Below are positions 6,357 to 50,746 of a stretch of 64,000 nucleotides of DNA, piece after piece. The translations under genes were made by a program, and so were the position numbers. Within the stretch, counting starts at the first letter, position 1. Each line of letters starts with the position of its first letter. The notes under the pieces were generated by a model. It worked only from the letters and a program-made list of their open reading frames with translations, was not told the origin of the DNA and did no database searches. The stretch comes from Podospora anserina (Eukaryota), in contig CM030336.1 of the NCBI GenBank assembly GCA_017654855.1, positions 2,666,001 through 2,730,000 of the forward strand, written 5' to 3'.

Positions 6357-7356
6357 ATGAAGTCGATAGCCATCTTCGCCGCGGCGCTGCTCGCTGTCGC
6401 CGAGGCCTTTCCAGAAAAGCAGATGGCGGCCCGCCAGACCACCCCCAAAATTCCTGTTGCAGTACAAAAGCCGATCGAAGACGCCAGACTGAACGCGCAG
6501 ACAAACCAAGGATGCTTCAAATCAGCTGGCAATAACATGACGTTTGTTACAGTCATTCAGTACAACTCAATCGGAGAGTGTGCTTTGAAAACTTGCGTTC
6601 CAAAAGGATTCACGGCCGCTGCCACCACGGGCGGCAACCAGTGCTGGTGTGGCTACAAGTACCCGCCCGAGGATGATTTGGTTGACAACAAGAAATGCGA
6701 CGTTGGCTGCACTGGCTTTGGCGAAGAGGCCTGTAAGTTTGCCGGCTCCGATGTGTTGTGGGAAAGACGACAACATGCTAACACGATGATGCCCAGGCGG
6801 CGGAAAGAATTATTTCTCGGTGTACAACACAGGACTGACATTAGATGTGGATTTTGCCGAAGATAGCGGACCGACGGGAGAGAAACACAAGACAAGCACA
6901 ACTTCGACAACAGCCGCGCCAACCCAGGTGGTCACACTGCCTCCAAGCGTCGTCACGCAAACACAAGCACCAGTCGAAGAGGAGGAGAAGAAGGGCGGCA
7001 AGAACGTGGCCGGCATCGTTGCCGGTGTGGTGGTTGGTGTGATCGCCGCCGTGGGTCTTGCCACGGGCGCGTACCTCTACCTCCGCCGCAAGAGGAACAA
7101 GGAGATTGAAGAGGAGCATCGTCGCAACGCTGCCGTGAGCGCCTTTATTGGCCAACCCCCCGGAAGCAGCCGCGGCAGTGGCATTTCCGGCGCCGACTCC
7201 CGCATGGACCCAGTCATGGCCCAGAGGAGGATGAGTGACGGCAGTATCGCCGACAACGAAGATTACTCCAGGAAGATCCTTCGCGTAGGTTTTGACTCTG
7301 CTCAAGGCCCAAGATGGTACCGCTCACTGACAACTCAACAGGTCACCAATGCATGA
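6357..7356 (+). CDS. WSC-domain cell-wall integrity sensor (Wsc1/Slg1-like); introns 6733-6796 and 7285-7341
   Basis: Signal peptide, WSC cysteines (QGCF...CWCG...CDVGCTG...ACGG), Thr-rich stalk, TM helix VAGIVAGVVVGV and conserved tail DYSRKILRVTNA after splicing. Confidence 0.92.
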
Positions 7357-12740: not shown

Positions 12741-15083
12741 CTAACCCTCCTCGAAAAAGACCCTCTTCGTCGACCGCTCCCTCTCATCCTCCATCTGCTC
12801 CAGCTCCCTGTCAATCTCCATAATGTCCATCATCTCCTCCTCAATGTTCCTGTTGATCGCCTCTTGCTCGTCATCGGGCTGATCAGCCGCAAAGTTCAGA
12901 TCGTTAATAAACCGGAGCCCAATCGCCTGGCTCGCACCCTGAGGAGGAACAGCCGGGGCTTCAACCGACGGGAACAAGCTATCGCCCCCTCTTGGTTGAT
13001 CCTGGGAAAATAGCCCACCGGCTGCTGCGGGTCGACGGACAGACCGGAGCAAGGCCGCATTGTCAGCTGCTGGTCGGTGGGCTATGCTGAGGTTGAAAGC
13101 GACGCTGTTGGGCTTCTCAGGCCTGGGATAGGCGAGAATGGCCTTGGCTGGCTCGAGATCTGTGCGGCCGCTAACCTTCTTACGAGCTCCTAGAAGACGG
13201 CTGGCGAAAGAGGGAGCATCCTCGCTTTCGTGAACAAACACTACGCGGCTCTCGCCTTGAATGAGCACCTCAACCGGGAGACTAGCCTCGACCGGGGGGG
13301 TGCCGTTTTCGGACGCGGAAGAGTTGTTGGCAGTGACAGGCTTGGGGATGGCAGCGGCTCCTGTGCAGCGCTCTCCGAGGAGACCAGCACCAAGATCCGT
13401 CAGACGGGCCATGCGTGTGAGCTGGGTGCCACTCCAGAGGTTGCCGCCACCAGCAGCTTTTCGCAGCTGCGAGTCCCAGAATTTGGCAACGTTTGGAACA
13501 ACCGAGACAAGTGGGTCAGAGCCTCCAAGCCAGAGAAGCGCCGTTTCATCGCCTGTTGCTGTTCCCTTGGCGGGTGACAAGTGAGTGACGGTGATGCCTC
13601 CCCGTACACAAACGAGCTTCTCGGGGCCTCCATTGGCGGACGCAAGAGCTTCACGTCGTGTGTGAGGCGTCATGGGAACAAATTCGCGAGATGACCCAGT
13701 GGCGGCTGGTGACTTTTGGGTGGCGGGGTTTTTCAAGGGGCTGGTGCCCTCCAGGTGGCCTGTCACGCTAAAGTTGGTGATGGCAGAACCGCGAAGGCCG
13801 GCGCTGGCTTTGCTGAACAGACCACCCGAACTAGCACTGGTGGCCGTTGGGCTCGCGTCCTCAATATCCCAGATGCCCCATTGCCCATCTGCAAGCAAGG
13901 TCAAAACAGCGCGTCCGTGAGCGATCCACTCGGCAGCTACGATTGGTTTCCGGGAAGTCGACATGGTTGCGCTGCGGGTGAAGGGGGGATAGAGCGAGAG
14001 CAGCCACGAGCCCTGGATCGGGAAGGGACCTTCAGAGGCATCCTCGAGTGGAAGCGCCGGTGTCGAATAGTCGTAGATACGCACGGCATGTGTCGAGGCG
14101 ACGGTCAACAGCTGGGTGAGCTGGGTAGGATTAAAAGAGATGCTGGAAAGTGGTGATGGGAGGTATTCTGTTTGGAACGACTCCAGCCGACTGACGACAC
14201 CAGGCTTGGCATCCAGGGGCACGTTCCAGAAGCGAAGAGTGCCACTTGCTTCTCGGGAGTGGGCTGCGACGATAACGCGAGGAGATTGTCTTGTCTGTGA
14301 CTGTGTTGTCGTGGACTCCACCGATCTGCTTCTCGATGCAGCCGTCGACTTGGCCAATGTCATGGCGACTCCTTCACATGGCCGGCTCTGGCCCCCCAAC
14401 AGCGTCAATGTCTCTCCCCACACGCCCTTTCCTGCATTCTCTGCCAGCAGGCTTTCCCGTAGCTCAGGTCGCGCCTTGCTCTCGTTGGATGGTGGCGTCA
14501 GAGGCAAAGTAATCAGGTAGACCTCGCTCGTGGCGCAAGTCACAGCGAAGATGATCTTTTGTTTGAGAATGTCGGCACCATTCCAGGCTGCCTCGGCGGA
14601 CGTGGTGTTTGGCATTGGCAGAACAGCAATTTTGAGGACTGCGGTGCCAAAGGCGAGATCCAATGTCTGTATGATTTCGGCGAGGGGGGAGGTCGCTGTC
14701 GAGGTCGGGCTGTCTTCGAACTCGGGCTTGTCGACAAAAGGAGGGGGAACATCTTCTTCGTCGGAATCGATAATCATGATGGCATTGGAGGTAGAACCGT
14801 TACTCTTCTCTTTTGATTTGTTCTCTGTCTGGGGTTTGAGCCTTCGACCGCCGCGCCAAACGACGGTGACGCCATTTTCGTGGCCGTAGAGCAGGATTGT
14901 GGCTCCCTGAGGTGACTGGACTGGGTATGTCTTGACATGGTGTATTCTGCGACCTAGTGTATATCTGAGTGCCAGTAGTTAGCATGTAGATCAAGAGAAA
15001 CATGGTGTGAGCTAGCAAGATGGGGAGTCGCACGTGTATTGGGTGTTCTGCGGCGTGCGCCGAGTTCTGGGAGTTGATTGCAT
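12741..15083 (-). CDS. NUP37: Nucleoporin Nup37 (fungal beta-propeller); intron 14965-15033
   Basis: The spliced N-terminus MQSTPRTRRTPQNTQYTYTLGRRIHHVKTYPVQSPQGATILLYGHENGV matches my recollection of Sordariales Nup37 and continues into the 678-aa ORF. Confidence 0.8.
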
Positions 15084-15633
15084 GTCGTCAAGCGACGAGA
15101 GTGGAAACGGGAGGTCGGGAGTCGATGACGGGTCGTGATTTTAGATAGAATCTTGGATGGGTATGCCTAGCTTGGTGAGATTCGGAGACTGATCGATCCT
15201 CTCGTCGTGGACCGTAGTTGGGTTGTTTGTTTGTGTTTTGCTGAACTGCGATGTTGAAGCTCTGGGATAAATTTCGCCGCGCTCCAATGGCTGCCGACGC
15301 GAAGGAGCTTGGACCAGCTCACGGCGCTGAGACCCCATGTAAAGCTCAGACCCCACTTTCAACCACACCCTCTTCGCCCAAAGCCTCTCAACTAACTTTG
15401 AAGGCCTCAACTCACTAACACTCAGCCCGCCATGTATCAAATTCTACGCAGCTTAGCTCAAAGTCAACAGAATGATGGCCGTCTCCCCACGACCTAATCT
15501 TGAAGTGTGACAAACTTACCGTGGTAGGCAAATTATAAAGAACCCAATCTTAAAAATGAAAACTTCTTCTCGCTTCCGATCACCACCTTGAACTCTCTGC
15601 AACAGCCTTGCAACGACGACAAGCATATTCACC

Positions 15634-16552
15634 ATGCCTACCTTCGAGGGCCTCCCCGACAAAGTCCATCAGGCAATCTTGTACACCATCGACTGCCCAA
15701 AATGCCTCAACAACCTGATATCGGCCTCACCAAGTTCTCTACGTGTTCTTCAACTCCACCGCCGCGCGACACTTTGGCGCCTTGCCCAGAGGGCTATACC
15801 CGTTCCTATTCATGCGAAGGTGCAGAAGATCCGCCATCTGGATGTCGACATCCGGTTGATTGAGAAGCTGCTCAAGATCTTTCGACGGTCTCTTGTTGAA
15901 AGCACGCGCCAACTTCGAATCGTAAAGCATCGCCCATCTAACTTGGGACCATCTCTCTTAAGATACTTTGGACCGGCGGAGATCTTTCCAAGACAAGATG
16001 TCATCCGTGGTCATTATTGCAATACTGGGTGCTCCAGAACCTCCTTTGATAGATCAGTGCCCTGTGTGGCGCAGATTGCGCTCGAGGTTATCCTTCCCGA
16101 ACTCTGGCTTCGCCCTAGGTCCACGTCCAGGTTAGGTTGGGATCACATACGTAGCGCCGGCTCAGGTCTGGAATGGACATCCAACATGCCTCGGACCCCA
16201 GTTGAGCAGGCAATGGTCCAGACGTCGATCACTCCCAAGGTAATATCAAAGCCATGGATGCATCATATCGACTGCCCTGTTCATTTAAGTGTTGCGTCTC
16301 GCGTCGTGGACGAGGACTGGAATGGGTACGATGAGTTCTCGCTTTTCTTTGCAACTATACTTCCAAATGAACCAACGGAGACGGTTGAGCAGTAGGTCGG
16401 GGAACAATGGGGTCCATGGTTTAAATGCTTTCTTTCTCAGAACGGGAAGCATCATCGCCCAAGAGGGTTATTGGGCCAGCTTAGATTGGAGCTTTATTCT
16501 CGATGACAAGGAGTTGAGAGACTTAATTAGGCAGACCCGTCCTCTTATCTGA
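15634..16552 (+). pseudogene. Hypothetical protein with F-box-like N-terminus, probably degenerate
   Basis: FEGLPDKVHQAIL...LISASP N-terminus; stop at 16395 with an apparent C-terminal remnant in another frame up to 16552. Confidence 0.4.
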
Positions 16553-17238
16553 TGGTAAATGACGGGAAACAGTTCTCATAAATGGTTTGGGAGAGAATGC
16601 CGGCGGTTGACTAGTCACATTCAAGGACCTTCTCTCAGCTTTGAGAACAACAACGAGGGTCATCATGGAAGACCACTGAAGGTATATAAGGTCCATATGT
16701 AGGTAGCTGTGAAATAAATCTTACTGTCTGCCAGATTGTACTTTACATCGACACTGAAACCGTCACCAAACCAACATGACCCTGTACACTATTCGGGATG
16801 ATCCTTCCCCCGCACCGACGAATTCAGATTATAGCCTTACCGCCCGTCCCATCTCCCCTTATTGGGGTCTTGAGTTGGAAAGCATATCACCTGGCAACAG
16901 CAGCAGCGACGCCCTCTTAAAATCGACTCTGCCATCATCGCCCAGTGGGCCATCTGGCAGGCCCAAAGCCTTCTTCCGCCAGACATGGAGTAAACTCACC
17001 AGCTTTGTCCACCGCATCAGTGTTCCCAGGTCGCAAAGAGAGTGAGCCTTGAGTGCAACTCATGGAAGAGGGAGGTGATGGTGGACGGCAATAATTTGAA
17101 GACAAGACATCAGGGCAGGTCTTATTCGGGGTGGTTCGTTGGGAAAAAGGGAAAAGTTGTTTGAGGTTGTATTTTGGATGCGTCTAGGTATAGGTACATC
17201 AATGACGGAGAATGACAACTCGCATCAACCACAAACCC

Positions 17239-18075
17239 CTACGGCTTCCTCCCAACAAAAACAACCATATTCTTCTCCACCCTGAAAACACCCCCCTCAT
17301 CCAACCTCTCCCCAACAACCCTTTTCACTGTTTCCCTCTTCCCCTCCTCCATGTCCGTCTCCCCAACACTATCCAAATACTCCAACACGGGCTCCACCCC
17401 CGGCAGTCTAAACTCCCCAGGAAACCTCTCCCTCTCCACCCCCTCAAACCCTGCCCCCTCGATCTGCTCGAGTGCATTCTCAGCAGTTATCTTCGCCAAC
17501 CCAGCAATGGTACTCCCCCTCCCTACCATCCCCCCAATCTCAAAAAGTTCCTTGAGATGATCAAGTCCGTTCAACGCCACGACTAGCCGTCCCCCATTTT
17601 TGAGGACACGTTTGAATTCTCGGAGAGCAGCGATCGGGCTGTCGACGTGGTAGAGCATGTGGTTTGCTACGACGGTGTCGAATTCAGAGTCGGGAAAGGG
17701 GAGGGAAGTGGCGTCGCATTGCTGGACTTTGACGTTGGGAAGGATGGATTTAAGGGCGGCGATGTCAGGGTTGGAGTTGAGGGTTGCTACCATGGCGGGG
17801 GAGAAGTCGGTTAGTGTGAGGGAGGTGACTGAGGAGAGTTGGGAGGGGGAGGAGATGGCGGGGGGGGACCAGAGGGCGCCTGTGCCGGCGCCGACTTCAA
17901 GGATGGAGCCGCTTTTGGGGATGAAGGTTTGGGCGAATTGGAACCAGGATTGGGGGTGCGTGTTGTAGTTGTGGATTGAGAGGCGGGCGGCGAGGCGGGA
18001 GGAGGTGGTGGTGTATTGGGATTTGGCGTGGGTGTGGGCTGTGAGGGTTGGGATGGTGGTGGTTGTGGTGGTCAT
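17239..18075 (-). CDS. Class I SAM-dependent methyltransferase
   Basis: ILEVGAGTGALW (motif I), TDFSPAM, DATSLPFPDSEFDTVVANHMLYHV; likely ATG at 18075. Confidence 0.92.
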   Translation of the reverse strand: MTTTTTTIPTLTAHTHAKSQYTTTSSRLAARLSIHNYNTHPQSWFQFAQTFIPKSGSILEVGAGTGALWSPPAISSPSQLSSVTSLTLTDFSPAMVATLNSNPDIAALKSILPNVKVQQCDATSLPFPDSEFDTVVANHMLYHVDSPIAALREFKRVLKNGGRLVVALNGLDHLKELFEIGGMVGRGSTIAGLAKITAENALEQIEGAGFEGVERERFPGEFRLPGVEPVLEYLDSVGETDMEEGKRETVKRVVGERLDEGGVFRVEKNMVVFVGRKP

Positions 18076-18439
18076 TTTGGTGGTGGTGATGGTGGCGATG
18101 ATATTGAGAGTGGTGATGGAGAGGTGTTGGGGGGGAAACTGCTTCACAGCTGATTCTCGTTTCTGAGTCAAGGGCCGAGGTGATCGGATCAGTGATGAGG
18201 TTGAGATTCTGCTGGCCAAGTCAAGGTGTTGTACGTGTGTTGTCGTCACAGTGAACATCACGAGAGAAAATCTGGTATATCAATGGAGTCCATGGTCAAC
18301 ACCTCTGCGGCCAGCCATCAAGGTGCATACCTGCCAGGTGGTATCACGACGGGTACCTGCGAGGTACTTCTAGGAGGGGTGGACTGCAGATCGGACCCCC
18401 CTGTTCGGAGGGTGGGAAGCCAAGCCAGCCCCTCGCTGG

Positions 18440-18471
18440 TGAGCAAGTTACAGGTTGCATGAGCAAGTTAC
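18440..18471 (-). promoter_or_regulatory. Two direct copies of GTAACTTGCTCA (Mac1/CuRE-like) upstream of the methyltransferase
   Basis: TGAGCAAGTTAC at 18440-18451 and 18460-18471 on the + strand. Confidence 0.55.
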
Positions 18472-18719
18472 CGCTGTTCGGGTACGTCGTGTTTCCTTGC
18501 AGTCTGCATCGACCTTTACCGAATATCACTGACGGAGTGCTGGGTCCCGAGAATGTTCAGTGGGGGTTCTAGGCATTGGTCATAGGCTTCATCGTGGTAC
18601 TTGACAGATACCGGAACGGAATTAGGTTGGATAACAGTCGCGATGTGAAGGTGTAGGTATAGAGAGCAGGATGTATTGTGTCGAGAAAGTTCTAGCCATC
18701 TTGAAGCAGAAGTTGAGAA

Positions 18720-20733
18720 CTAGAACTGATTCAACGACGCATCAATCTTGTCATAGCGGCGGAACCGCCACAGGAACGCCACCGCAGACACCCCCATAGC
18801 TCCCGCCAGACACGAGTACACAATCACCATGTTCGGATCCTTAGACGCCGGGCTGATAGCCATCCCCAAAAGACTGGCCACTCCAGCAGTGAGCTGCGTC
18901 AAGGCTTGGACAACAGTCTTCATCTCCCTTGGGGCCTTGCTGTAGGCGTACTCAAATGCAGTGACAAAGCCCAAGATCTCCGCAATGGCAAGCAGGATGT
19001 AGACCGGCAGCTGCACCCACACACTGACATTGTTGGGCTGCCGACCTCCTTCGGACTCGGGGCAGTTATAGGGATGGTCATAGCAGGGCCCGGTAGAATA
19101 GATCAACTTCTGAACTCCAGCAGCGTAAGCCATGGAAGCTCCACAGAAGATGAACGACGTCGTGATGCGAGCAATGGGGCCGAATGGAATCTTGCGGCGA
19201 GCGAGAAACTCGTAGAGGCCTTGCATGATTGGCCCAAAGATGATGCAAGCCACACCAGAGAAGGCTTGGATCATGTCGTTGGGGACACCGGAGAGAAGCA
19301 TCTGGCCGGCTTGGGAGACGAGGTTGTTGTACATTTGGGCGATGCAGAGGTAGAAGATGACGAGGAAGAAGCTGCCTTCGTGTTAACATTTGGATCATGA
19401 GATCAGAGGGTCAAACATACATCACCCTGCAGGCAATCATGCCGCGGCGCATTTCTTCCACAAAGCTATCTGTCCATGGAACCTCTTTGCCGTGGTGGGT
19501 CTTTTGATAGGATGGTTTTGTGTGCTCCAGCTTGAATCCGTTCTTTGAAGCACAGACAAGGACTCTTACAGCCTTGGGCAAGACATTGCCTTGTGGTTTG
19601 ACCTTGACTATCTTTGTTGTCAGCTTATGTCGGTTGTTTCAGGTCAGAGATGAACATACCGAGCTTCTTGGACCACAAAAGAAACAAAGCTATCGATATG
19701 CAAAGTGTAACAGTAGCCAGAAGGTACGCTGACCAAAACTCATGGTGCCACTCGATAAAGGTGACTGGTATGGAACTCAAGGAGGCAATGTTGGTGAACC
19801 TGGGAGAGTCAGATGAAGTGGCAAGGGCAACTGAAGAGTGGCAGAACTAACCAGTAATAAGCGTTGTAGATGAATTGCAGAGTCCGCGGCCCATCCACGA
19901 CCACCAAGTTGGCGTTCTTCTGACGGATCACCTGAGGCTTGGCCTGCATGTACTGATCACCCAGGAAGGGGACATAGGTTGCTTTGACGGAGCCAGCTCC
20001 CAGCCCAGTCAAGATCAGTGCTGCAGCCAACCCTCCAACACCTGCTCCTTGTTCCAGAGCCGAAGGAATCGAAGTGCTAATGAGGACTACACAGCCTGCA
20101 AGATAGCATCTGGGTTCAGGTCAGCAAAGGTGGTTTTTTGTGGCGTCCAATCAAAGAAGCGTCAACATACACTAGACCCAAAAGTAGAGTTTTGTATCTA
20201 CCTAGCCATATGTCGGATATCAACGCAAAGAGCATTGGTGTCAGGAATGAGAACAGAAAAAAAGCATTGGAGATGTTGACGGCTGTTGCTTGACCCAGTC
20301 CAAGAGCTCCCGGGACCGGTTCTTTGCCTTGAGGGTATTGCATGTAGTTTTCTGGGCCTTTGTCAGCTTTGTGTGGTGCGTCTGTGAGACTTTAAAGACT
20401 TACGCCATGGTGCAATGAGACCAAAGTATGTAAAGCGTTCACCGGCTCCAGCAACAATGACAGCCCAGGCGGCAAACGGGATCTTGTCGGTGATTTTGGG
20501 CAGTGTTGCTATCTCGTCTTCAGTGGCATCTCGAGGGAAAATGCTGTCATCCTGCGTTGTGTCCGACTTTGATGTCTCAATGGGATCTTCTGTTGGTGGC
20601 TGTTTCTCCAAGTCATCGGCCTGGAATACTGGCTTTCCAGTCTCCTGAACAGCAATTGGGGGTTGTTTTCTGCCAAGAGTCAGTCAGTGCGTTTCGGTGA
20701 GATGAATAGGGACAACACATACTCCGAATCCAT
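18720..20733 (-). CDS. POT/PTR family di/tripeptide transporter (multi-exon)
   Basis: GERFTYFG (ExxERF-like), ALGLGQATA, LISDIWLGRYKT, EYAYSKAPREMK; start MDSE|KQPP via an intron near 20670-20722. Confidence 0.92.
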
Positions 20734-21027
20734 ATTGAGGTGTGGTTGGTATCAGGTAAGGTATTGATGTTGCTTGCTACACACTGAGATATCAGACAGA
20801 AGCTCCCCTCACCACTGCCAACATTACAGAGGGCGAACCCACAAAGGGCGGTCGGTGTACGTAGGTAGCCATGATGGGCCACCCACTCCAGTAACCCTCA
20901 ACGTGCTAACCCTCAAGGTGTCGACTCCAAGATCGTTGAGCCAATCGAGATCCTGGTAATGCGAGATGCAGCGCGTCCCTGCAACGTGACCAGGCCTGGA
21001 CTCTTGGCATCTTTGGGGGTTCCGGGG

Positions 21028-21135
21028 GTGCTCAGCGAAACTTGCTCAAATACTCGCTGAAGAGATGAGCAGCCGAAGACATGCAGAAGACGAAGGAAGA
21101 ATCACGGCATTTCCATGTCCGTTGATGAGCAAGTT
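21028..21135. promoter_or_regulatory. Cluster of TGCTCA (CuRE-like) motifs upstream of the PTR transporter
   Basis: GTGCTCA 21028, AAACTTGCTCA 21038-21048, TGAGCAG 21066, TGAGCAAGTT 21126-21135. Confidence 0.55.
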
Positions 21136-21446
21136 GAGAAAGTTAGACCCCTGTCGTCGCCCACCAGTTTTCAGCGAGAACAAGTGAAGTTAGAAGTGTA
21201 GGCAGACTGTGGCTAAGCACCCCTCCATCTGCCGCTCTCTCTTGGGCCCCCACAATTCAATTTCAACGTCCAACTTCAACATCGCGATTCCAACAACATC
21301 TCTGCCAAGGGAAAGCACTCTATTCACTGGCACAAGCGAGTTATCGAAAGGAATCGAACAGTCATGTAAACAACATTATGACATTTTTGAAATGCATATA
21401 CAGAAACCACGGAACACGCCCTCCGCAAAGGCCACCATTGCCGAGC

Positions 21447-23585
21447 CTACCAAGAGAACGCGTCCACCTCAAGCTCCCAGACAGTCGGCCCGGTCCGCGC
21501 CTTGGCTGTCACCAACGCCCGAGTGTCGTCGCAAAGTCCCCCGGGCCCACACACGACCACTCCGACTCTGCTCCACCCCGTCCGCTCCTCCTCGGCCAAC
21601 AGCGCCGCCACGTCCAGTCTGCTGCCAACTCTGACGTCCTTCTCAGCCACTCTGGACAACGGACCCTCCAGGTCCCGCACCAAGCCCTCGGCCGAAGCCT
21701 TGACGCTCCAGCAAATCTTGACGTTGGTGTGCCTCGCAATGTACGGCAGCACACCCGTGATTCCGACTCCTCCGGCGATCAGCAGGAGTCTGTCCGATTT
21801 GAGCACCCCATCTGTCGGGTTGTCTGGGTATGGACCGTCCAAGAGTGTGAGGAGGGAGTTGTGGTTGGCAAGCAGCTTGGTCAAACCTTTGGACTTGCGG
21901 ACGTAGAGTGTGATGCCCGTTCCAGGAGCCCCGCCAAGTGCTTGGTCGTCTCTTTGCGGTGCGCTGGTGCTGGTGACGCCGCCTGATTTCTCGACATCAG
22001 CGGTGCTCCGCGTGTCACTGCCCGAAGCAGCTCCGGACAAGGAAGCATCCCGCTTGGACTGGAGAAGAGCCGTGGGCAGGATGGAGAACGGGTGGTTCTC
22101 CCATGGTCTCCATGGGCTCAGGGCTGGAAAGTAGGCATAGGTGTGAAGACCAGGCGCAGCTGTCCACCGGATGCCCTTGACATCAACCCGCACAATATCC
22201 TCAGACACTTCTGTGACAACCGCCCGTCTGGGGCCGTTCTTGAGAACGCGGAAGACCCGGATCATACGGTCAAAGAACCAGACAGCGCAGGCGGCATACA
22301 GCCAAAACTCGTATCCCCACCTGCGCTGGAACAAGAACTCGACGTGGTACCAGCTGCCGACAATCACAAAGACGGCCATGATGATGTGACCAACGAGGAA
22401 CAACTCGTACGACCACCGTCTGAAGAAGAGCGAGCTAAAGACCAACATGGCACAGGCAAAGACTGTGGCCACAATACCCCAGGCCCAGTACTCCGTCTTG
22501 AATTCGGCTTCGTAGGATTCCATGTCGATGTACAAGACCAATTCAGCAACCGAGTGGATGATGACCTGGGCAGCGTAGATCCGGGCCACCCACCGGTGGA
22601 GGACCATAAAGGTCGAGTGAGACCAGTTGGTCGCCCAGAGGAGAATGTTGTTGCGGCCAGAAAGCAGGATGACAAGAGGCGTCAAAGCAAAAGCTAGGAC
22701 ACCGGTTCTGGCGGAAAAGTATCCCATTACTTCCTGCCATTCGTTCGCGAACCAAGCGTTGGGCTGAACAGACTTGTAGCCTGCTGCCGCCATGGCGATG
22801 TTCAGCGCCGCAAACATGATGACGTACAGCGACTGGCCGACTGTTGCAGCGTTTCCGAGGAGGTAGGGCAGGGGCCGTACGTGGTATGTTCCGATGAGCG
22901 AGGGATAGACCAGGTATGGCTTCAGCTTGTCTGACAGGGTGCTCATGTATGGCAGCCTGGTGAACATGGAGATGACCACTGGTGTGCCAAAGCCAACGAT
23001 CAAGAGAATGAGTCTAGAGGCGTCGGTGTCAGTGGCGTGGACGGCATCGCGGCCTGCGGATTTTACCTACCCATATTGAGAGTGGATCGTCTCGGCTTGC
23101 TCAAAGTATTCTCGAGTCAAGGTGTTGGCCTTGACGGTTTCGGGATCCAAGAGCACTGTTCGGGTGAGGTGATGATCATCCTCGCCATACTGGTCTGTGG
23201 GGGGCTCCTTGATTTGCGCCAGAGCTTCGGTGTATGACCACTTCGCCGCAACCGTCTTGCTGCCGGTGGCCTGCTCGGACCAAAATTTCTCCAACTTCCA
23301 TCTTGGGGTCGAGGCATCGCAGGTGGTGTTCATGCAGTATGCCAGTGTCGTCAGGAAATAATCGTCCCCGGCGCGGCATTCTGGTGATGTTGGGCCTCCA
23401 GCACCGTGACTGTGAGCGCCCACCGGTCCATGGTCCATCACCGAGCACTCCAGCATGAAACCCGAGACCGAGTCGTAGCAACCGAAGCCGCAGGAGGGAT
23501 CGTACATGGTGATGCCGTATCCAATAAGGGCTTGTGCTGGGACGGCGAGGGCCGCCAGCCCTGCTGCTGTGAGAAGGCCTCTCAT
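21447..23585 (-). CDS. Ferric/cupric reductase transmembrane component (FRE family); one intron near 23014-23069
   Basis: Signal peptide, Cys-rich ectodomain with MDHGPVGAHSHG, LSGRNN, HRWVAR, FAD motif HPFS, NADPH motif LIAGGVGIT, CGPGGL, C-terminal DAFSW. Confidence 0.93.
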
Positions 23586-23976
23586 TTTGGTACCGTTGCT
23601 GAAGGACCTTGACTCGAATCCGACATGAAAGAGAGATGCGAGCCAGCTGGAAAGGCACAAGGCCAGGGAAAAGGGCGACTTGATCAGACAAAAAGATTAC
23701 GGGCCCAACACGTTCTCCCAGCATGGAAGCACAGGATTCTCGACGTTGTATTAGTATCGGCTTCCGCCCCGAGCACTCGCCAAAGCACAGGGATATGTGA
23801 ACCAACCGGCTTGGGTCGCAGCCCGCGATGCCGGTTTCTGGGGAATTTAGTTGGCACCTCCTCGCTACCCATCTTGGGACTTCTGTCGAGGTCTCGAGTC
23901 AGGAAGATTCAGTCACGGCATGTTGTGGCTTGCTGCTGATGCTTGCGGGGCCCCTTGTTTATTGATATTATACGGC

Positions 23977-24048
23977 AAATTTGCTCAGATGCCGAAACTT
24001 GCTCACTGGTGGCGCATGTAACCCCCGAAACCTGCTCACAACTGCTCG
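23977..24048. promoter_or_regulatory. Tandem CuRE-like motifs upstream of the metalloreductase
   Basis: AAATTTGCTCA 23977-23987, AAACTTGCTCA 23995-24005, AAACCTGCTCA 24028-24038, AACTGCTCG 24040-24048. Confidence 0.6.
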
Positions 24049-24250
24049 CTTCTGACTGGCTGGGTGAGTGTTTTCTTGGCATAACCATCACTGACAGACA
24101 GGGGGGGGGTTGCAGTTCAACGATTGTCCAGATCTTTCTTTTGTGGTTACGATGAAGACGCTATCCACACTACTCAAGAGTTACCTTATCTTTGCCCATG
24201 TTTAGGTTTAGCCTTTCAGCCACACCGACACCTGTCAGGATGAGCGAGTT

Positions 24251-26278
24251 TTAATCATCAAGGGGGTCGAACTCATAGTCAAAGTTCTTTTCAATGAAAG
24301 CCACCCTCTCCAACAAATCCCTGCGCGAAGTCCGAGAGACAACCGAGAAGAAGGCAATCCACCAGAGCGAGGCCGCATCCGGACCCTCGAGGACATCACC
24401 CCCCTTCTTGCGCGTGTAGTAGTCCACCACATTCTCCCGAACATCAAGATGTTTCTCCAGAAACTCTTTGGCAGCGTCAGCTGACCTCATGATGCCTCTG
24501 CGCGTCTGCTGAATGATCATAACCGAGAGGTGGAACTGCGGGCCGTTGCGGAACGGGTGCGACAGCGCGCGGAAGCGAGCCTCCTCTGCATCACCCAGCG
24601 CGAGCAACATGTGGAGCGCATAGTAGTCGACGCCATGCGCCAGCTGCACCGCTACCGACTCGAGGTATCCCGGTGGTCGGGCGTTGACCTCGTGGAGGTA
24701 CACTTCCGGGTCTGTGGCTCCGTCTGTATTATTTTGGTTGTTTGCCGGAACCAAGTCGAGGATCCCGTTTCCAACGTCTTGGTATTTGACGCTCGAATTC
24801 CGCACCCGGGCCTCGCAGTGGAAGACACCGGATTTGAATCCCTGCCTGACAAGCGTTGCTCTGAGTTGGTCTTGGAGAGCCTCCAGTTCGTGTTTGGGGA
24901 GGGCAGAGGGGAGGACATTTTGCGTCTCTTGGAAGTTTTCCCTCAAGCCGGCATTGGCAGAGTCTGCCGGGCTGGGGAAGTCATCGTTGATATCGGCAAA
25001 GACGATCTCCCCGTTGAGCATGACAAAGTTGGCGTCTACTTCTGGCCCGGCGACGTATGGTTCTACCACCACGGCTGTGCTTGGTTTTGGGGAGTCGGCG
25101 TGTCTGTCTGATGCTTTTTTGACTGCAACCCTCAACTCATCCACATTCTTGACCTTGGTCACGCAATCTGAACTCCATCCGATAACGGGCTTGACCACCA
25201 TTGGGAATTTCAGTTCCACGTTTTGGGCCAACACCCCCTCGAGATCATCTTTATGCCTCAAGACAAAACTCTCCTCTGTTCCTACCGTCTCGAGGAGTCT
25301 TGTCCGGCCTTTATCAGCGGCGATTTCATACGCCTCGGGGGACTCAGTCGGCAGACCCAAAATCTCGCACGCCTTGGCTACTCCGGCGAGGCGGACGTCG
25401 CTGATGGTGACGATGCCGTTGATTGGTTTGGGGTATCCCCTCACGGCAACCACAATCCGTTGAGGAAAATCCTCATTGGGAGCGACGTCTGCCTCGATGA
25501 AGTCCTCTCTTAGATGTGCCCACGGCGAAGTCGGATCTTGCAACCAATGACCTTTTTCGTCAATGATGACGAGGGAGATACCTAACGCTTGAGCGGCGTT
25601 TAGAGCTCGCTCGATGCAGTCGATATCTTCGCGGCCTTGGACCCAGGCGATTCTTTTTCGGGTGGGGGGTGAGGGGAGGAGGAAGGGCAATCCCAATCTG
25701 TTGTTTGTCTCTTTGTTGAGGACCGCGGGGCTGTAGTCATTTGACAGTACAAGGGCTCCGAGAGAAGAAGAGAGGATTTGGGGGAGGTTGCTGGGGGTGA
25801 GGGATTGGGGAGTGATGGGTGTGACGTGCTGAAGGGGGGTGAGGAAGGTGTGGGCGGAGAGGAGGCCGGGGAGGCACTCGAAGCGGAGGGGGATGAGGTC
25901 TGAGCGGGTGATGTAGCCGGGGGTGGAGGTGAAGAGGAAGCGGATGGTGAGAAGGGGAGTGGGGGGTGAGAGGGTTTGCTGGAGGAGAGTCTTCCAGGGA
26001 GATGTGGCCTGCTGGAGGTTGATTTGGATGGGGGTTGATGGTTGAGCTGCTGCGGAGCGTGTGAAGGTGAGGTCCAAGGCCCAGGTTTCTGGGATGGTGT
26101 TGTTGGTGGGTTTTTGGTTGGTGGTGAGATTGGTGCAAAGGGAAATCGTTGCTGGACGGGGGAGTAAGCATTGGTACATCGGTAATGAAGGGAGGTTAGA
26201 GGGTGGGTAAGTACCGTGTACTGTTCTTTCTGGGGAGAGGGTGATGGAGGCGTAGCCCCAAGGATTGGCGGACGTCAT
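24251..26278 (-). CDS. ATP-grasp amino-acid ligase (fungal FsqD/AnkG-like; L-amino acid ligase type)
   Basis: ADKGRTR, FPMVVKPVIGWSS, VVEPYVAGPEVDANF, GVFHCEARV, HEVNARPPG; likely ATG at 26278 with a probable in-frame intron near 26090-26214. Confidence 0.88.
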   Translation of the reverse strand: MTSANPWGYASITLSPERTVHGTYPPSNLPSLPMYQCLLPRPATISLCTNLTTNQKPTNNTIPETWALDLTFTRSAAAQPSTPIQINLQQATSPWKTLLQQTLSPPTPLLTIRFLFTSTPGYITRSDLIPLRFECLPGLLSAHTFLTPLQHVTPITPQSLTPSNLPQILSSSLGALVLSNDYSPAVLNKETNNRLGLPFLLPSPPTRKRIAWVQGREDIDCIERALNAAQALGISLVIIDEKGHWLQDPTSPWAHLREDFIEADVAPNEDFPQRIVVAVRGYPKPINGIVTISDVRLAGVAKACEILGLPTESPEAYEIAADKGRTRLLETVGTEESFVLRHKDDLEGVLAQNVELKFPMVVKPVIGWSSDCVTKVKNVDELRVAVKKASDRHADSPKPSTAVVVEPYVAGPEVDANFVMLNGEIVFADINDDFPSPADSANAGLRENFQETQNVLPSALPKHELEALQDQLRATLVRQGFKSGVFHCEARVRNSSVKYQDVGNGILDLVPANNQNNTDGATDPEVYLHEVNARPPGYLESVAVQLAHGVDYYALHMLLALGDAEEARFRALSHPFRNGPQFHLSVMIIQQTRRGIMRSADAAKEFLEKHLDVRENVVDYYTRKKGGDVLEGPDAASLWWIAFFSVVSRTSRRDLLERVAFIEKNFDYEFDPLDD

Positions 26279-26944
26279 GTTGAGCGTAGGAACCTCGGTG
26301 CTAAGGTAGGTGGTAGGCCTGTGTTGATGGTGTTGGTGCCGTGAAACAGGGCAATTCTGCAGGCCGGTTTTAATAGGCCGTGAAAGTCTGGGGAAAATAT
26401 GTCGCACTGCAGACGATGATTCGGAGGAAGTCAGCCGGGCCCGGGAAAGGTATGGTATGGTTGAGTGGTGTGTAGATGAGGGTTGGACAAGACCGAGGAG
26501 AAAGTCTTGTCTTAGGTAAGTCAAATAAAAACGGGAGTGGGTAGGAGAGACGTTCCAGGTAGGCGGGAAAGCGTGGGAGGGTGTAAACGAACTGTGATGG
26601 TTTTATGCAAGTTGTGTCATGCAGAATAATACTGACAGCGGGCTGGATGTGAAATATGGGGGTTTTGTGATGTTGACAGGTGTCCATTTGGGGGTTGGTA
26701 CATGGTAGGTACCTACATGAAAGGGAATTCCCACAGCGAGTGGTAAACACACCTGCGCGGTTGCTGCTCCACGTTTCTCTTTGAATGAGACTGGGGGTGT
26801 GGGTGGCCCCGCTGATCACCTGTGTTTCGGTGACATTGCACTGGGGGAAGGTCGACAAGGTGCGCAGGATGTTCGGCATGCTGTTCAATGGCGACATTAC
26901 ACCGCGGCCGGGGATCGATCATGTTTACCAAGGTGCGCAAGATC

Positions 26945-27260
26945 AGAGCAAGTTTGCGGGAGTAAAATGTTTGATTCCCCGGCAGGGGAATTTAGGGTAG
27001 GTACCTTGCGGGATGGGTGGTAGGAACCTTGGTAGGTAGGACGTGGGTGATCACCTTGCCGAGAGGGAGAGACAAGGGGGTAAGACTTGCCCAGAGGGTG
27101 ATGTTCCGGCGTGATGGGAACCCATGTGTCAAGTGCTGGGAATGGTGTGTGTGGGTAGGAAGTAGACAGGCCATGTTCCGGGTAGCTTGGTGACGGGAGA
27201 GGGAGGGGAAGTTATTTACATCTGTGAGGTGCTCAAAGTTGGGTAGTTCACCTTTGCTCA
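26945..27260. promoter_or_regulatory. CuRE-like motifs in the divergent promoter of the ATP-grasp and cysteine-synthase-like genes
   Basis: AGAGCAAGTTT 26945-26955 (reverse complement AAACTTGCTCT), GTGCTCA 27229-27235, TTTGCTCA 27253-27260. Confidence 0.5.
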
Positions 27261-27336
27261 CCTTGCTTTCCAGACCCTGCACACTATCACTATTGTTTGG
27301 ATTCCATTTTGTACTTTTCCCTAACAAGCCTTCAAC

Positions 27337-29305
27337 ATGGCATACACAAACCCCAACCCCCTAAACGTCTTCTCCGGCCCGGACTCGCTGTCTCATTACT
27401 TCGACCCCGAGCAAAACCCGCCGTTGCCACTGGTCGAGTTACCTGCCGCGTTGAACCCCTTCCGCAAGGATGGCGTGAGGATTTATGCAAAGATGTTGAC
27501 GGCGCTGCCGGCGCAGAATGTCAAGTCTCTTCCTGGTTTGTTCACCCCGTTCTCGCATCCCTGATAGGTAGTATTCCCACTGACGTGTGTTGTTCGGGAC
27601 AGCCCTAGAAATGCTCAAAACCTCACCCAAAGCCCGCACCGCCAAACGGATTGTTGAAGCGAGTTCAGGGAGCACGGTGCTCAGCATGGGGGTTATTGGG
27701 CGGGCGTTGTGGGGTCATGAGGGGGTTGAGGCTTGGGTGACGAATAAGAAGACGAGGGAGAGCTTGAGGGTTTTGAGGTTCTTTGGGGTGGGGATGTAAG
27801 TTTTCCTTCTTGAGGGTGCCCGTGGTGGTTTTGGGGAGGAAACTGACAAGAGGGATAGATCGTTGTATGGAGGGTTGGCACAACAGGAGCCGTCAGACCC
27901 CAAAGGAATCATGGCGAGATTGAGGAGGAAGGCGAGGGAGGAGGAGGAGGTGTGTTATTTGGGGCAGTATGATAATGATGCTGTGAGTCAAGGTCTTTGC
28001 TTTGGTTGAGTTTGGGCAGGACTGACAATGAGACAGAACTGGCAATCGCACTACAACCACACCGCCCCTCAGCTTGCGCTGCAACTCCACTCTTTGTCGG
28101 TGCTCTGCTCTACTATTGGGACAGGGGGTTGCATCACCGGCACAGGGCGATATCTCAAATCTCATTTGTCGTCTGATATCAAAGTTGTTGGTGTTTGCAA
28201 CGTCTTTGGAGATCCAACACCAGGGCCGAGACATTTCCCTGGGTTTGAGTCAAGCCCGTTTCCGTGGAGGGAGACGATTGACGAGTTTGTTAGTGTCAAG
28301 TCGGAAGATTCCTTCAGGATGAGTATGAGGCTGAGTAGATACGGGATTATCTGCGGGCCGTCATCAGGGGAGGCACTTCATGGACTGCTGGAGTGGCTGA
28401 GAGAAAATGGTACCGACGGACTGAAGAGGGATGAAAATGGGGAGGTGAACTGTGTGTTTTTGTGTGCGGATTTGCCGTATCAGTATATGGAGTTGTATTA
28501 TCAGAAGCTAGGGGAGGAGGAGTTTCCGGGGATCAGAAATCAGGTATGTAGCACCCAGAAAAGGGAAGAGGAGTAATGACTGACAAGGGAACAGTGCTTG
28601 TTAGAGGTGGACCAAGACCCCTATGACGAAAGATGGTTCCTTGCGCCAGAGAAGACAGTCGACATGTTGGTTGGGGAGGGTGGTGAGAAGTATGATGGGG
28701 AGGTGCTATGCATGGTGCCCTCTTCTTGCGCCTGCACAACGACGCGAACATCAAGAACATACAGGCAGCAACAGCAACCAATTGAGGGGATATTCGGGGA
28801 CTGTTCACCAGGTGCGGTATCCTATGTCTCGGAGTCTGCCTCGACGATATTCTCGACGGCATCACCATCATCATCGGTGTACAGTGTCGCTACCACGACC
28901 AGTGTTGAGTCACAGTATTCTTCGATGGGGAAGGTCATCGATGTAAGACCGAGAGCGGAGTTTGTCAAATCCCATCTGAGAAATGCGGTGAATATTCCAT
29001 TATCAGTGACAAAGGATGACTTTTATGGGGATCCGCAGGCTGTTTGTGAGAGGTGGAAGGAAATGAATGCCGCGTTCAAAGAGACTGGTGTGTTGAATCA
29101 CCAAGAGGAAGATGATGACAGACAAACACTTGTCGTTTGTTTGGATGGGGACTCTGGAAAGATGGCGGCTTCTATGCTCAGAGGGGCCAGCAAGAAGGTT
29201 GGCAAGAAGAGAGAAGTCTTTTGTGTAGATGGGGGGTGGGGAGTGTTGGAAGCGTGGCTAAGAAGGAGGGGCTATGGTGATGATGTCTGGGATGGGGTAG
29301 ATTAG
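27337..29305 (+). CDS. Cysteine-synthase-like PLP enzyme (fold type II) with C-terminal rhodanese domain; 4 introns
   Basis: PLP lysine in NVKSLP, IVEASSGST, GQYDN, IGTGGCITG, GPSSG; rhodanese VIDVRPRAEFVKSHLRNAVNIP...VVCLDG...DGG. Confidence 0.9.
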
Positions 29306-29637
29306 CGGGGCAGTACATAGGTAATCAGTCCTTGAGTGTAAGATATTTCTTGACGCCCATTAAATAGGTATCCCTTAAGGTCTATCAACTATATTCGAAG
29401 TTCTCAGGGCCTGTTACTCATATTTTAAGGCCTTTCTTTCGCATTTCACTCTCCACTATTCTGTACACGGCGTGGGTGGTGTTTTTGAGCATGAGATCTA
29501 TTTACCCTGAATGCTAACTTCTCTATAACAACAAAAAAAACAAGACATGCTATTCGACAATATCCCCAACACACCAAGCGACCAGCACGGTGGGCTAAGA
29601 AAAGGCTAGGGTTGATGGGGATATTACACTCAAAGTC

Positions 29638-30105
29638 TCAGGTCCCCGTGAGCCACCGGCTGACAATAGGCTGTTTTTCTTCCTCTTCTAACATAGGCTC
29701 ATTAATGATTGTCGATATTGAAAACAGATCAAACCTTCTGCTTGGGGTTCGATGCATTGGGTCATGATAGATGACGTCTAATTTACTTTTGTCGATTATC
29801 AAGCCTTCATAATGACAAAGAACTCGAACACAACCGGGCTTCTTCTTGCGTTCAAAGCCAGGCTTGTCAACTATAAGCGGAAAGCTGCAAAAGGGCTTAT
29901 CAACGGTGAGGTCGGAGATGTTCTCAACCTCATTCTTAAAGTCGTGGGGATAGAAATTCTTGCAGATGGAGGACCAAATACGCGTGTATTTGGTCATCTT
30001 GCCAGGGGCATTGTCGAGCTGCAGTTGAACAATTGAACGCGAGATATATTTCAAGGGATTTTTGGTGCTAAGGCCTTCGCAGTGGTACCATGGCAACGTT
30101 AACAT
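29638..30105 (-). CDS. RNase T1/N1-fold-like protein without signal peptide (paralog 1; 5' end uncertain and possibly damaged)
   Basis: YPHDFKNE...SFP...KPGCVRV...DVIYHD spacing mirrors RNase T1 YPH-x-N-x-E / EWP / PGADR / H; aligns with the gene at 33724. Confidence 0.65.
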   Translation of the reverse strand: MLTLPWYHCEGLSTKNPLKYISRSIVQLQLDNAPGKMTKYTRIWSSICKNFYPHDFKNEVENISDLTVDKPFCSFPLIVDKPGFERKKKPGCVRVLCHYEGLIIDKSKLDVIYHDPMHRTPSRRFDLFSISTIINEPMLEEEEKQPIVSRWLTGT

Positions 30106-31739
30106 GATACCACAAATCAATCCGGCAAAGCGAGAATACCGCACGCCTCTACGGAAATATATGTAGTAATGGCCATATACTTACCACTGGGCCAAGTTGG
30201 GTGGAAGTCGTTGTTTCTGTTGACGTCGAGTCTGGAGTAAGTCTACCGTCCGGAAGATGACTAGCAGATGGATGCAAGGACATGATGTTCTATACAAAGC
30301 GGAGAATGTTAAGCATGCAATGGGATTGCGATGAATGAGCAGATTACTATTGACCCAAAGCAGAACGACAACTGGTTTTCATATATAACGCTCGGTAGGT
30401 CTACTCGTCTTCAAGCTGTATTCTGGTAGCTGTTTCAGAATGAGGCCTTCAACTATATTGCCTCACGCTTTGTTCGTTCAATTTCACGAAGACGCCGTCA
30501 GGTATGTTCCAGCTTCGAATACAAACACAACTGCCCCAGGGCCATCGGCTATGGAGTCTTTGTTGAAGCGACTTGACGTCTTGTGTTCCGTGCCCAATCA
30601 CAGAACACAAGAGCATTGGGTGCTTCAATGTTCTTCGAGTCTCGATTGAGCAAGGCGTATCATTGGGTGTAAATCTCAATGATCGTAGATATAAGCAAAC
30701 TTTCCCAGATATGACGACGATCAAGCTCCGTAACGACCACGGCTTTTACTTCAGAATCGCCCAACTCGCTTCTAAGGGCACCTTTGATTGAACATCAGAC
30801 TTAGGCTCGTCCTGCAACAATTTGTGGCCTGGGAATCATGAAGACAAAGCTGTGGCGATTCTGAGTTGTCACTTTAAGAGAGCGTCAACAATGGATTCAG
30901 GGGTTAAGGGGTATGCACGGGCCAAGGGGGGTTCATGGTTGGTGGGTCTGTTGTTTTTGAACCATTGGTTTTGCTGAAGATAGATCTGTGACGTGCAGGT
31001 ACCACTGGTTTTTTTATGACCAAGGTAAAGACATCAGAAGTGTAAAGCCGGGTGTTGGCAGATTAAGGTCTTGCCTGTCCAGCCCATCTAATTGTAGTTG
31101 AGCTCCTTCCCAAGTACCTATTTCCCCGTCTTTTTGTCCCTCACCCAACAATGTGGTAGAGAGCGGTATCATTATTCTGACAAAATGTCTTTGTGTATTT
31201 GTTGAGAAGCTCTTTGTGACCAAGTCTCGGGTTTCCGCTAAGCCCTACTTTCAGCTTCGGCCTTAACCCTTGAATCAGGTGTGTTGCACCCGTAGAAGTT
31301 GCCTTCGCCTCGGTCCGCGGCGGCCAACAACGGTTTCCTGCTCGAGTATGCTCAATACCACTGAGCTCCTTCCATTGGCTTTTTACAATGATTCCAGCGA
31401 TACGGCCGATACGTGGCTCAGCTTATTTTACGGTTGCCGCTGTTAACCCTAAAAGCTCCACTTCGCAACCTCCTCCCCGCCCGGCCCAGCTTTTGCAGCG
31501 GCCCCCACCATGCTCCCGATCGCTGCATTCCCGCTCCAGACACATAATCGATACAAGAGCCACCGATCAACGTCAGAAAGCACTCAAATACTTTCGATCA
31601 AGGATTTTCTTCTTAGAATTTCCCTTCGAGTACTTCAAGACAGCTTGACAACCCTCCAATTCCACCTCACTGCCTACACTCAGCCGCTGAGGTCATCGCT
31701 CACTCATCGTCAACAAATTCTCACAACCTCACCACAACA

Positions 31740-50237: not shown

Positions 50238-50746
50238 TGTTACGCCCCAAGCATAATAACCCCGTGAAGGAACCACTGGGTGGTTCCCGAGGTGCTGGGA
50301 CACCTCAGCGAATCATTGGGCCAGGGATGGGAAGACCCACAAAGTCCCCATGTGACTAATCAGGAGGTGCTCAGTCTGATCAGTGGCCAAGACCACTAAG
50401 CACACTGAGCACATCGATCATGAAAGATTGCTCAGTCTGCTCAGCCGCCAAGACCACTGAGCACACTGAGCAAGGTACAAAGATACTTCAGAAACATATG
50501 TAGATAGCTGCACATAAATAGGAGGGAGCGCCCAGCGCTCTCCGTGTCGAGGAATCTGATTCCTCACGCAAGCAATCAAGTTCATTTGTCTACAATCTAC
50601 TCTCAAGTAGTTCTTTGTAGAACGACCTGTTGTTGACAGTGAACCCCTTGTCTGAGACGCTTGTCACAACCTTCGATTATCCTGTCATATTCACCTCTGG
50701 CGTACTGCCTTGCAGTCTGTATCCATTCCCGGTGCAGGTTGTAACA
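50238..50746. mobile_element. Solo LTR of another family (509 bp)
   Basis: TGTTAC...GTAACA inverted ends, TSD TTATC; splits the Fot1 transposase. Confidence 0.9.

Follow-up and report, generated by a model that had tools for sequence, protein, structure and literature searches.

A candidate copper-linked metallophore gene cluster without a nonribosomal peptide synthetase in Podospora anserina and other Pezizomycotina

What might hold a ferric/cupric reductase together with a methyltransferase, a peptide-type transporter, an ATP-grasp ligase and a divergently transcribed pyridoxal phosphate (PLP) enzyme with a rhodanese domain? These five genes adjoin each other in a 64,000-nucleotide stretch of the Podospora anserina genome (contig CM030336.1, positions 2,666,001 to 2,730,000), referred to below as the window and numbered from its first letter. 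An earlier note on the window had proposed that they form a copper-starvation-regulated cluster for a metallophore made independently of nonribosomal peptide synthetases (NRPS). We found that the five genes are intact and transcribed, that they cluster in other fungi as well and that they have a Mac1-type promoter motif in common; for the reductase, PaFre1, partial dependence on GRISEA has been shown in print. On balance we lean, with a little better than even confidence, towards a conserved, NRPS-independent cluster under Mac1/GRISEA control that would produce a marasmin-like pseudopeptide chelator, carried by the proton-coupled peptide transporter (POT) and unloaded by the reductase.

Five transcribed genes that recur together

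The five genes occupy 17.1-29.4 kb of the window (Table 1), and their closest protein matches come from Podospora species at 97-99% identity. Pfam assigned Methyltransf_11/25/23 to open reading frame (ORF) 17239-18279 (-), PTR2 to ORF pieces in 18720-20120 (-), Ferric_reduct, FAD_binding_8 and NAD_binding_6 to 21447-23066 (-), ATPgrasp_N and ATP-grasp_4 to 24251-26602 (-), and PALP and Rhodanese to 28010-28576 and 28580-29305 on the plus strand. The scan comprised the cluster ORFs and 43 further ORFs of at least 130 aa, those below 130 aa outside the cluster being left out, and among these 53 pieces from across the window no NRPS, polyketide synthase or fungal transcription-factor domain was found.

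Transcription was read from assembled contigs of four runs from four studies, aligned to positions 15000-31000. No listed run was recorded as RNA and their nature was judged from the contigs themselves, which contain 12 joints with GT..AG ends, have loose poly(A) and poly(T) ends at 29439 and 17139, respectively, and are therefore transcript assemblies. All five genes were covered by contigs in each of the four runs, and all five reading frames are open once spliced at the observed joints. Together with the Pfam assignments this bears out what the earlier note had said of the composition of the cluster, both the five adjacent intact genes of the named families and the lack of NRPS, polyketide synthase and cluster transcription factor. 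The ATP-grasp gene has an in-frame intron of 63 bases, which was spliced in runs X2 and X6, read through by one contig of X1 and beyond the reach of X14. Contig depth was unusable for ranking the genes, and contigs that bridge the transporter, reductase and ATP-grasp genes are no proof of a single transcript. The flanks were almost (15534-16600) or entirely (29952-31000) devoid of contig cover in the four runs, which is no evidence of silence; likewise, three small runs under the same species label (X22-X24) held almost no matching words, which says nothing on silence or conditional expression. Just 3' of the ATP-grasp stop, at 24192-24224, contigs of X2, X6 and X14 break on either side and run into unrelated sequence, and this 33-base stretch probably also belongs to another transcript or else is a repeat.

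A total of 285 relatives of the ATP-grasp protein were found at E <= 1e-3. The named relatives among the 120 listed are all from Pezizomycotina (Sordariomycetes, Dothideomycetes, Onygenales, Leotiomycetes and lichen-forming Lecanoromycetes) and align over nearly their full length at 43-97% identity. Metagenome contigs were scanned with an alignment of 19 ATP-grasp proteins, and the resulting 26 loci were searched with the five window proteins by tblastn. A PLP-rhodanese gene lay divergently upstream of the ATP-grasp gene in eight loci (L003, L007 and L009-L014) out of the 14 in which that side extends for 3 kb or more; L011-L014 apparently represent one lineage, which reduces the count to about five of nine lineages. 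Reductase homologs were present in nine and transporter homologs, adjoining the ATP-grasp gene, in seven of the 26 loci. All five families are present in L014, whose ATP-grasp protein is 46% identical to that of the window and whose genes are arranged in the order PLP-rhodanese, ATP-grasp, reductase, class I methyltransferase, transporter and second methyltransferase; both of these class I methyltransferases are of Pfam types other than that of the window enzyme.

Named genomes gave a similar picture among the matches listed. ATP-grasp and PLP-rhodanese genes had consecutive locus tags in at least ten of them (Myotisia, Venturia effusa, Lobaria, Neonectria punicea, Parahypoxylon, Polytolypa, two Monosporascus, Corynascus and Fulgogasparrea) and shared a contig in at least 34, as counted from the homolog tables, while methyltransferase homologs were located on the same contig as the ATP-grasp gene in at least 18. 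In three assemblies of lichen fungi the methyltransferase homolog was two to four genes away from the ATP-grasp gene; in Cercophora samala and Lojkania enalia it was on a different contig. The synteny that had been suggested as a check across ascomycetes was therefore found: ATP-grasp/PLP pairs recur in many Pezizomycotina, with reductase, transporter and methyltransferase beside them. A 778-aa gene model of Aureobasidium melanogenum (P0206) unites PTR2, PALP and Rhodanese; adjacent transporter and PLP genes were most likely merged in this annotation, which would add to the linkage evidence. The eight ORFs flanking the window cluster had no match in the homologous loci. One open frame adjoining the cluster (745 aa, 12741-14978, minus strand) is without Pfam match and is not conserved there.

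Mac1-type promoter sites and the reductase PaFre1

The link to copper starts with the reductase. Both published quantitative RT-PCR primers for Pa_5_11970 match the window exactly, at 23177-23195 (-) and 22880-22898 (+), which identifies the gene as PaFre1. Its transcript tags amounted to 26.68 tags per million in the wild type and to less than 0.05 in the mutant of grisea, the MAC1 ortholog, and the gene was listed as a 'putative target gene of GRISEA' (PMC3495915).

Sites of the corresponding type are clustered in the promoters. The TGCTCA core occurs 62 times in the window compared to 31 in shuffled sequences, and 11 of the 62 fall within the four cluster promoters (3080 bp in total), where 3.0 would be expected from the window density (binomial p 1.7e-4); they are distributed over the promoters of the methyltransferase (two), the transporter (four), the reductase (three) and the divergent ATP-grasp/PLP pair (two). 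The longer form AACYTGCTCA has six exact copies in the window, all six in the methyltransferase, transporter and reductase promoters. This motif fits the consensus DHNTGCTCANNN obtained by chromatin immunoprecipitation sequencing of Fusarium oxysporum Mac1 (bioRxiv 10.1101/2024.04.23.590778). Enrichment was confined to the TGCTCA core and the AACYTGCTCA form, as the full copper-responsive element (CuRE) of yeast, TTTGCKCR, showed no enrichment there (10 vs 8.5 in the window).

The element is conserved as well. Across the 26 homologous loci (225 kb) AAC[AT]TGCTCA was found 22 times, compared to 0.7 in shuffles with a maximum of 5 across 200, and all 22 copies are intergenic and beside a cluster gene; merged by lineage they amount to 14 copies in nine lineages. 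The homologous divergent ATP-grasp/PLP promoters of L009, L010 and L011-L014 hold one to three copies each, and none was found in the distant-paralog loci L019-L025. Since this cis-element is kept at 44-63% protein identity, common regulation is well supported, and since synteny and promoter motif are conserved together, the grouping of the genes exceeds chance. The proposal of regulation by copper starvation stands as far as the clustered Mac1-type sites here and in the homologous clusters are concerned; copper-linked regulation itself is documented for PaFre1 only, and is partial.

Two further accumulations of such sites were noticed away from the cluster. At 50360-50475 six TGCTCA cores lie within about 110 bp, arranged as two direct repeats of about 50 bp with internal inverted symmetry (GCTCAGTCTG..CCAAGACCACT..AGCACACTGAGCA), and a TATA-like cacataaatagg comes after them near 50510. 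Downstream there is no clear gene; an RHS-repeat ORF on the opposite strand has its end at 50937. To the left, the DNA has a high A+T content and resembles the product of repeat-induced point mutation (RIP). Three copies of the yeast-type CuRE TTTGCTC(A/G) are present within 120 bp at 7517-7636, downstream of a WSC-domain gene (6276-7356), with no convincing ORF or Pfam match nearby. At 38000-42000, the edge of the gene-rich part of the window, about 4 kb have a G+C content of 19-20%, a low value typical of RIP-mutated repeats in Sordariales.

Table 1. Positions of the cluster genes, introns and promoter sites, and of the variant cluster
Feature	Position	Strand	Details
Class I S-adenosylmethionine methyltransferase gene (MT)	17139..18075	-	CDS 18075->17242, stop 17239-17241, 278 aa, intronless
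MT poly(A) end	~17139	-	poly-T loose end of RNA contigs
MT alternative start	18258	-	upstream in-frame ATG
MT promoter, two AACTTGCTCA sites	18440-18449, 18460-18469	-	~365-385 bp upstream of MT ATG
PTR2/POT proton-coupled peptide transporter gene	20733->18720	-	7 exons, 564 aa
POT introns (6)	19372-19420, 19608-19659, 19800-19851, 20110-20170, 20352-20403, 20670-20722	-	joints in 4/4 runs
POT promoter, four TGCTCA cores	21029, 21043, 21066, 21126	+, +, -, -	two of them AACTTGCTCA: 21039-21048 (+), 21126-21135 (-)
Ferric/cupric reductase gene (FRE), PaFre1 (Pa_5_11970)	23585->21447	-	693 aa; one intron 23014-23070, joint in 4/4 runs
FRE promoter sites	23978..24038	+	AATTTGCTCA 23978, AACTTGCTCA 23996, AACCTGCTCA 24029; ~400-450 bp upstream of ATG
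ATP-grasp ligase gene	26278->24251	-	654 aa; one in-frame intron 26152-26214
Divergent ATP-grasp/PLP promoter	26279..27336		TGCTCA 27230; TTTGCTCA 27253-27260; near-match AACTTGCTCT 26945-26954 (-)
PLP-rhodanese gene	27337..29439	+	CDS 27337-29305, 577 aa, poly(A) ~29439, joints in 4/4 runs
PLP-rhodanese introns (4)	27536-27602, 27796-27858, 27983-28036, 28544-28594	+	
Variant cluster	L016:12488-20739 (also L017, L018)		three TATCCTGCTCAAA repeats at 14053-14267

A possible marasmin-type pathway and its alternatives

The nature of the product is suggested above all by a kinship that the earlier note had missed. A PDB sequence search with the full-length copy P0121, which is 99% identical to the window protein over the exon searched, identified the synthase of aspergillomarasmine A (AMA) as the closest solved structure of the PLP-rhodanese enzyme (8h4h/8h4q, E 1e-108), far ahead of CysM, CysK and CBS (E 1e-18 to 4e-18). 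The two entries are titled 'Aspergillomarasmine A biosynthese complex with OPS' and 'apo structure of Aspergillomarasmine A synthetase'. An AlphaFold model (mean confidence, pLDDT, 82) matched 8h4q with Z 46.8 over 476 residues, both domains being aligned (residues 3-573), and the next fold matches, the O-phosphoserine-dependent CysM/OPSS enzymes, reached Z about 34 (34.6). The Schiff-base lysine K63 in NVKSLP is nearly invariant among 31 homologs and aligns with NVKIMP of 8h4h; Cys523 of the rhodanese domain is nearly invariant in the same set. Judged from sequence and model, the window enzyme is an AMA-synthase-like, fold-type II (CysK-like) PLP enzyme with a C-terminal rhodanese-like domain. 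NCBIfam added no family name, as its matches to this enzyme, the ligase and the methyltransferase were all far under the model cutoffs, and 12 loci of bacterial PLP relatives, mostly metagenome-assembled genomes of candidate phyla, provided no functional context and had no ATP-grasp, methyltransferase, reductase or transporter neighbours.

AMA synthase adds O-phospho-L-serine in two steps, first to L-Asp, which yields toxin A, and then to toxin A, which yields AMA, a ligand that binds Zn2+ with a Kd of 0.2 nM and also Ni2+ and Co2+ (PMC8319579; bioRxiv 10.1101/2025.10.30.685158). Fda4 carries out the AMA synthase reaction with Ala as the amine, after which a flavin (FAD) oxidase frees L-2,3-diaminopropionate (L-Dap) (PMC12751119). 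Because these characterized relatives form C-N bonds between O-phosphoserine and an amino-acid amine, an aminopolycarboxylate pseudopeptide appears likelier than a sulfur compound. The methylated, possibly sulfur-containing dipeptide chelator that had been predicted is thus strengthened as a chelator by the AMA synthase kinship and weakened with regard to sulfur.

The body of the ATP-grasp enzyme is closest in sequence to L-amino-acid ligases (BL00235, 3vot, E 2.5e-9, and BacD; PDB search), and 3vot, BacD and RizA are within the top five Foldseek neighbours of its model (pLDDT 86) at 13-18% identity, which places it by sequence and predicted fold in the L-amino-acid-ligase branch of the ATP-grasp superfamily. 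Residues 1 to about 225 form an extra N-terminal domain, well folded in the model and with invariant G100, R104, D106 and R111, that had no family match in Pfam and no usable match in the protein atlas when searched as part of the whole protein; it may alter the substrate of the candidate ligase. The methyltransferase is a generic class I enzyme (Pfam Methyltransf_11/25/23/31) whose best NCBIfam model, the carboxyl-methylating BioC, is far under its cutoff. Many of its relatives are from actinomycetes (Micromonospora, Dactylosporangium, Catellatospora and Actinoplanes) with 43-47% identity, which equals that of some fungal relatives, and cross-kingdom transfer of this gene is possible.

The pathway that we favour would combine these activities as follows. 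The PLP-rhodanese enzyme would exchange the phosphate of O-phosphoserine for the amine of an amino acid or peptide to give an N-(2-amino-2-carboxyethyl), marasmin-type aminopolycarboxylate, the ATP-grasp enzyme, as a putative L-amino-acid ligase, would add or pre-form one amide bond, and the methyltransferase would methylate the product. The resulting pseudo-di- or tripeptide would bind Cu(II) outside the cell, the PTR2/POT protein, a carrier of di- and tripeptides, would move the ligand or its complex across the membrane, and PaFre1 would reduce ligand-bound Cu(II) to Cu(I) for uptake. Hard N/O donors have a poor hold on Cu(I), so the metal would be freed upon reduction.

Several observations weigh against this pathway. 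An Aspergillus tamarii homolog outscores the Podospora protein against 8h4q (460 vs 367 bits), and the PLP proteins linked to ATP-grasp genes separate from the Eurotiales proteins in a rough FastTree phylogeny of 116 homologs, read without support values (first 380 residues, midpoint root, four short sequences dropped, the PDB sequence itself outside the tree, and linkage labels taken from our reading of the ATP-grasp and PLP homolog tables). The window enzyme is thus probably not a strict ortholog of AMA synthase, and its nucleophile may differ accordingly; the near-invariant rhodanese cysteine likewise keeps sulfur chemistry possible. AMA is documented as a ligand of Zn, Ni and Co, with no copper data met in the available text (PMC8319579). 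Three loci of one lineage (L016-L018) retain reductase, transporter and ATP-grasp genes but have other enzymes in place of PLP-rhodanese, namely a HODM_asu-like protein, a beta-eliminating lyase of the threonine-aldolase type and a 2-oxoglutarate-Fe(II) oxygenase, and the methyltransferase had no tblastn match in any of the 26 metagenome loci, even at E 1. POT carriers are importers as a rule, which leaves secretion of the ligand unexplained. Regarding regulation, copper added to grisea raised the PaFre1 transcript, which was described as 'only partly regulated by GRISEA', and the published data concern the reductase, the other four genes being absent from the supplement as available (PMC3495915). 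The ATP-grasp/PLP promoter of the window itself has only its two TGCTCA cores and no exact AACYTGCTCA, and the Mac1 regulon papers on F. oxysporum (bioRxiv 10.1101/2024.04.23.590778) and Histoplasma name no such cluster in their available text.

Among the alternatives, a marasmin-type or dipeptide toxin or antimetabolite, that is, a phytotoxin or a 'Trojan-horse' peptide taken up through the peptide permeases of competitors, would leave the transporter for export or self-handling and the copper link as purely regulatory. It would be in line with the known marasmins (AMA, Pyrenophora teres toxins A-D, lycomarasmine and aspergillomarasmine B of Colletotrichum), which have been described as products of plant pathogens (PMC12751119), with the many cluster holders among Pleosporales, Colletotrichum and Venturia, and with L-amino-acid ligases such as BacD, which produce antibiotic dipeptides. 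However, neither the conserved metalloreductase (nine of 26 loci) nor the Mac1-type sites kept across lineages are explained by a toxin, and the cluster is also present in saprobes (Podospora) and lichen fungi, so that we regard this alternative as unlikely. The same low probability is assigned to an island of the copper-starvation regulon without a secreted chelator, with PaFre1 serving ordinary reductive Cu/Fe uptake and the enzymes making an intracellular metabolite such as a metal buffer or a Dap-type or otherwise modified amino acid. The promoter motifs and the PaFre1 data from grisea fit it equally, the relative Fda4 supplies a building block, L-Dap, rather than a chelator (PMC12751119), and import is the usual direction of peptide transport by POT carriers. 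Free Dap is nevertheless not expected, as no Fda3-like FAD oxidase was found among the scanned ORFs, and a transporter and a cell-surface reductase that stay linked to the two enzymes across lineages are typical of uptake systems.

Less probable still is a metallophore for zinc or iron instead of copper. AMA is a strong Zn2+ binder (PMC8319579), PaFre1 has been discussed within reductive iron assimilation (PMC3495915), and one sequence resembling a zinc-responsive element (ZRE), ACCCTCAAGGT, lies at 20909-20919 in the transporter promoter. Zinc, however, requires no reductase; the ZRE-like pattern with one mismatch was not more frequent than in shuffles (21 vs 16), SreA-type sites (ATCWGATAA) were absent from the four promoters, where GATA and CCAAT sites were below the window average, and motifs of rival regulators had zero to one matches, while the enriched and conserved motif is of the Mac1 type. 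Finally, the view that the five genes are unrelated neighbours, to which the missing methyltransferase matches in the metagenome loci and the differing gene order and orientation between lineages might point, is very improbable given co-location in at least four Pezizomycotina classes, the common conserved promoter motif and the lack of conservation of the flanks.

Related systems and biological meaning

The closest precedent for the chelator that we favour is AMA synthase of Aspergillus oryzae (8H4H/8H4Q), which has the same two-domain build of a CysK-like PLP and a C-terminal rhodanese-like domain and whose product is a metal chelator. In contrast to the clade of the window enzyme, which is linked to ATP-grasp, reductase, transporter and methyltransferase genes, no such linkage was seen for the Eurotiales clade nearest AMA synthase; published accounts of AMA speak of 'only a single synthase' being required (PMC8319579) or of a two-gene cluster (PMC12751119), with no copper regulation in the available text of either paper. 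Fda4, from the fusadapamide cluster of Fusarium poae, likewise comprises PLP and rhodanese-like domains and joins O-phosphoserine to the amine of Ala (PMC12751119), but the conjugate is cleaved by the FAD oxidase Fda3 to supply L-Dap to an NRPS, and neither type of partner was found among the ORFs scanned here. The bacterial L-amino-acid ligases nearest to the ATP-grasp body (BL00235, BacD/YwfE and RizA) differ from it by the N-terminal domain of about 225 residues that is extra in the fungal enzyme.

The pairing of the two enzymes is reminiscent of the dapdiamide pathway, where an ATP-grasp ligase is paired with a CysK/SbnA-type enzyme. Opine-type metallophores (staphylopine Cnt, pseudopaline and nicotianamine) are amino-acid-derived ligands made without NRPS, encoded beside dedicated transporters and induced by metal starvation. 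The logic proposed here is the same, except that the C-N bond would come from PLP-dependent beta-replacement and that the cluster includes a reductase; nicotianamine-synthase-like and opine-dehydrogenase domains were both absent from the 53 ORF pieces scanned. The isocyanide clusters xan/crm are also controlled by copper starvation and Mac1, the crm promoters of F. oxysporum have TGCTCA sites (bioRxiv 10.1101/2024.04.23.590778) and the products have been proposed to aid copper sufficiency; their chemistry is nevertheless wholly different, and no isocyanide synthase domain was present among the window ORFs scanned with Pfam. Yeast-type Mac1 pairs (FRE1/CTR1 and fre/ctr of F. oxysporum) similarly include a Mac1-dependent metalloreductase with clustered TGCTCA sites. 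Unlike in these pairs, the linked partners of the window reductase are biosynthetic enzymes and a peptide carrier rather than a Ctr copper transporter.

Fungal iron carriers are well known. For copper, isocyanides of a few clusters were the only fungal copper-binding metabolites that turned up in the available parts of the literature searched, and no description was found of the cluster, of any connection between relatives of AMA synthase and ATP-grasp ligases or of their control by copper, subscription papers and some supplements being outside the search. The opinion that no fungal cluster of this composition has been described may therefore be kept, with the qualification that the PLP enzyme family and the marasmin chelators were already known.

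If the favoured pathway is correct, it would give the long-known marasmin chelators a physiological role, provide a reason why a cupric reductase travels with biosynthetic genes and constitute a new route of copper supply in fungi. AMA is of medical interest as a metallo-beta-lactamase inhibitor (PMC8319579), and enzymes that extend or methylate its scaffold could serve as biocatalysts. The ATP-grasp enzyme in addition contributes a conserved N-terminal domain without known relative in searches of Pfam and the protein atlas. Podospora would offer a directly testable model of it, as the grisea mutant is already at hand there.

A broader and more tentative idea, which we hold to be possible though somewhat short of an even chance, is that marasmin-type aminopolycarboxylates are general fungal copper carriers and that a Mac1-controlled 'reductive chalkophore' system consisting of an AMA-synthase-like enzyme, an ATP-grasp enzyme with a new N-terminal domain, a methyltransferase, a peptide-type carrier and a cupric reductase is widespread in Pezizomycotina. 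The replacement of the PLP enzyme in L016-L018 would then represent ligand diversification as in siderophores, and copper nutrition would give rise to the classical wilt and net-blotch 'toxins' as by-products.

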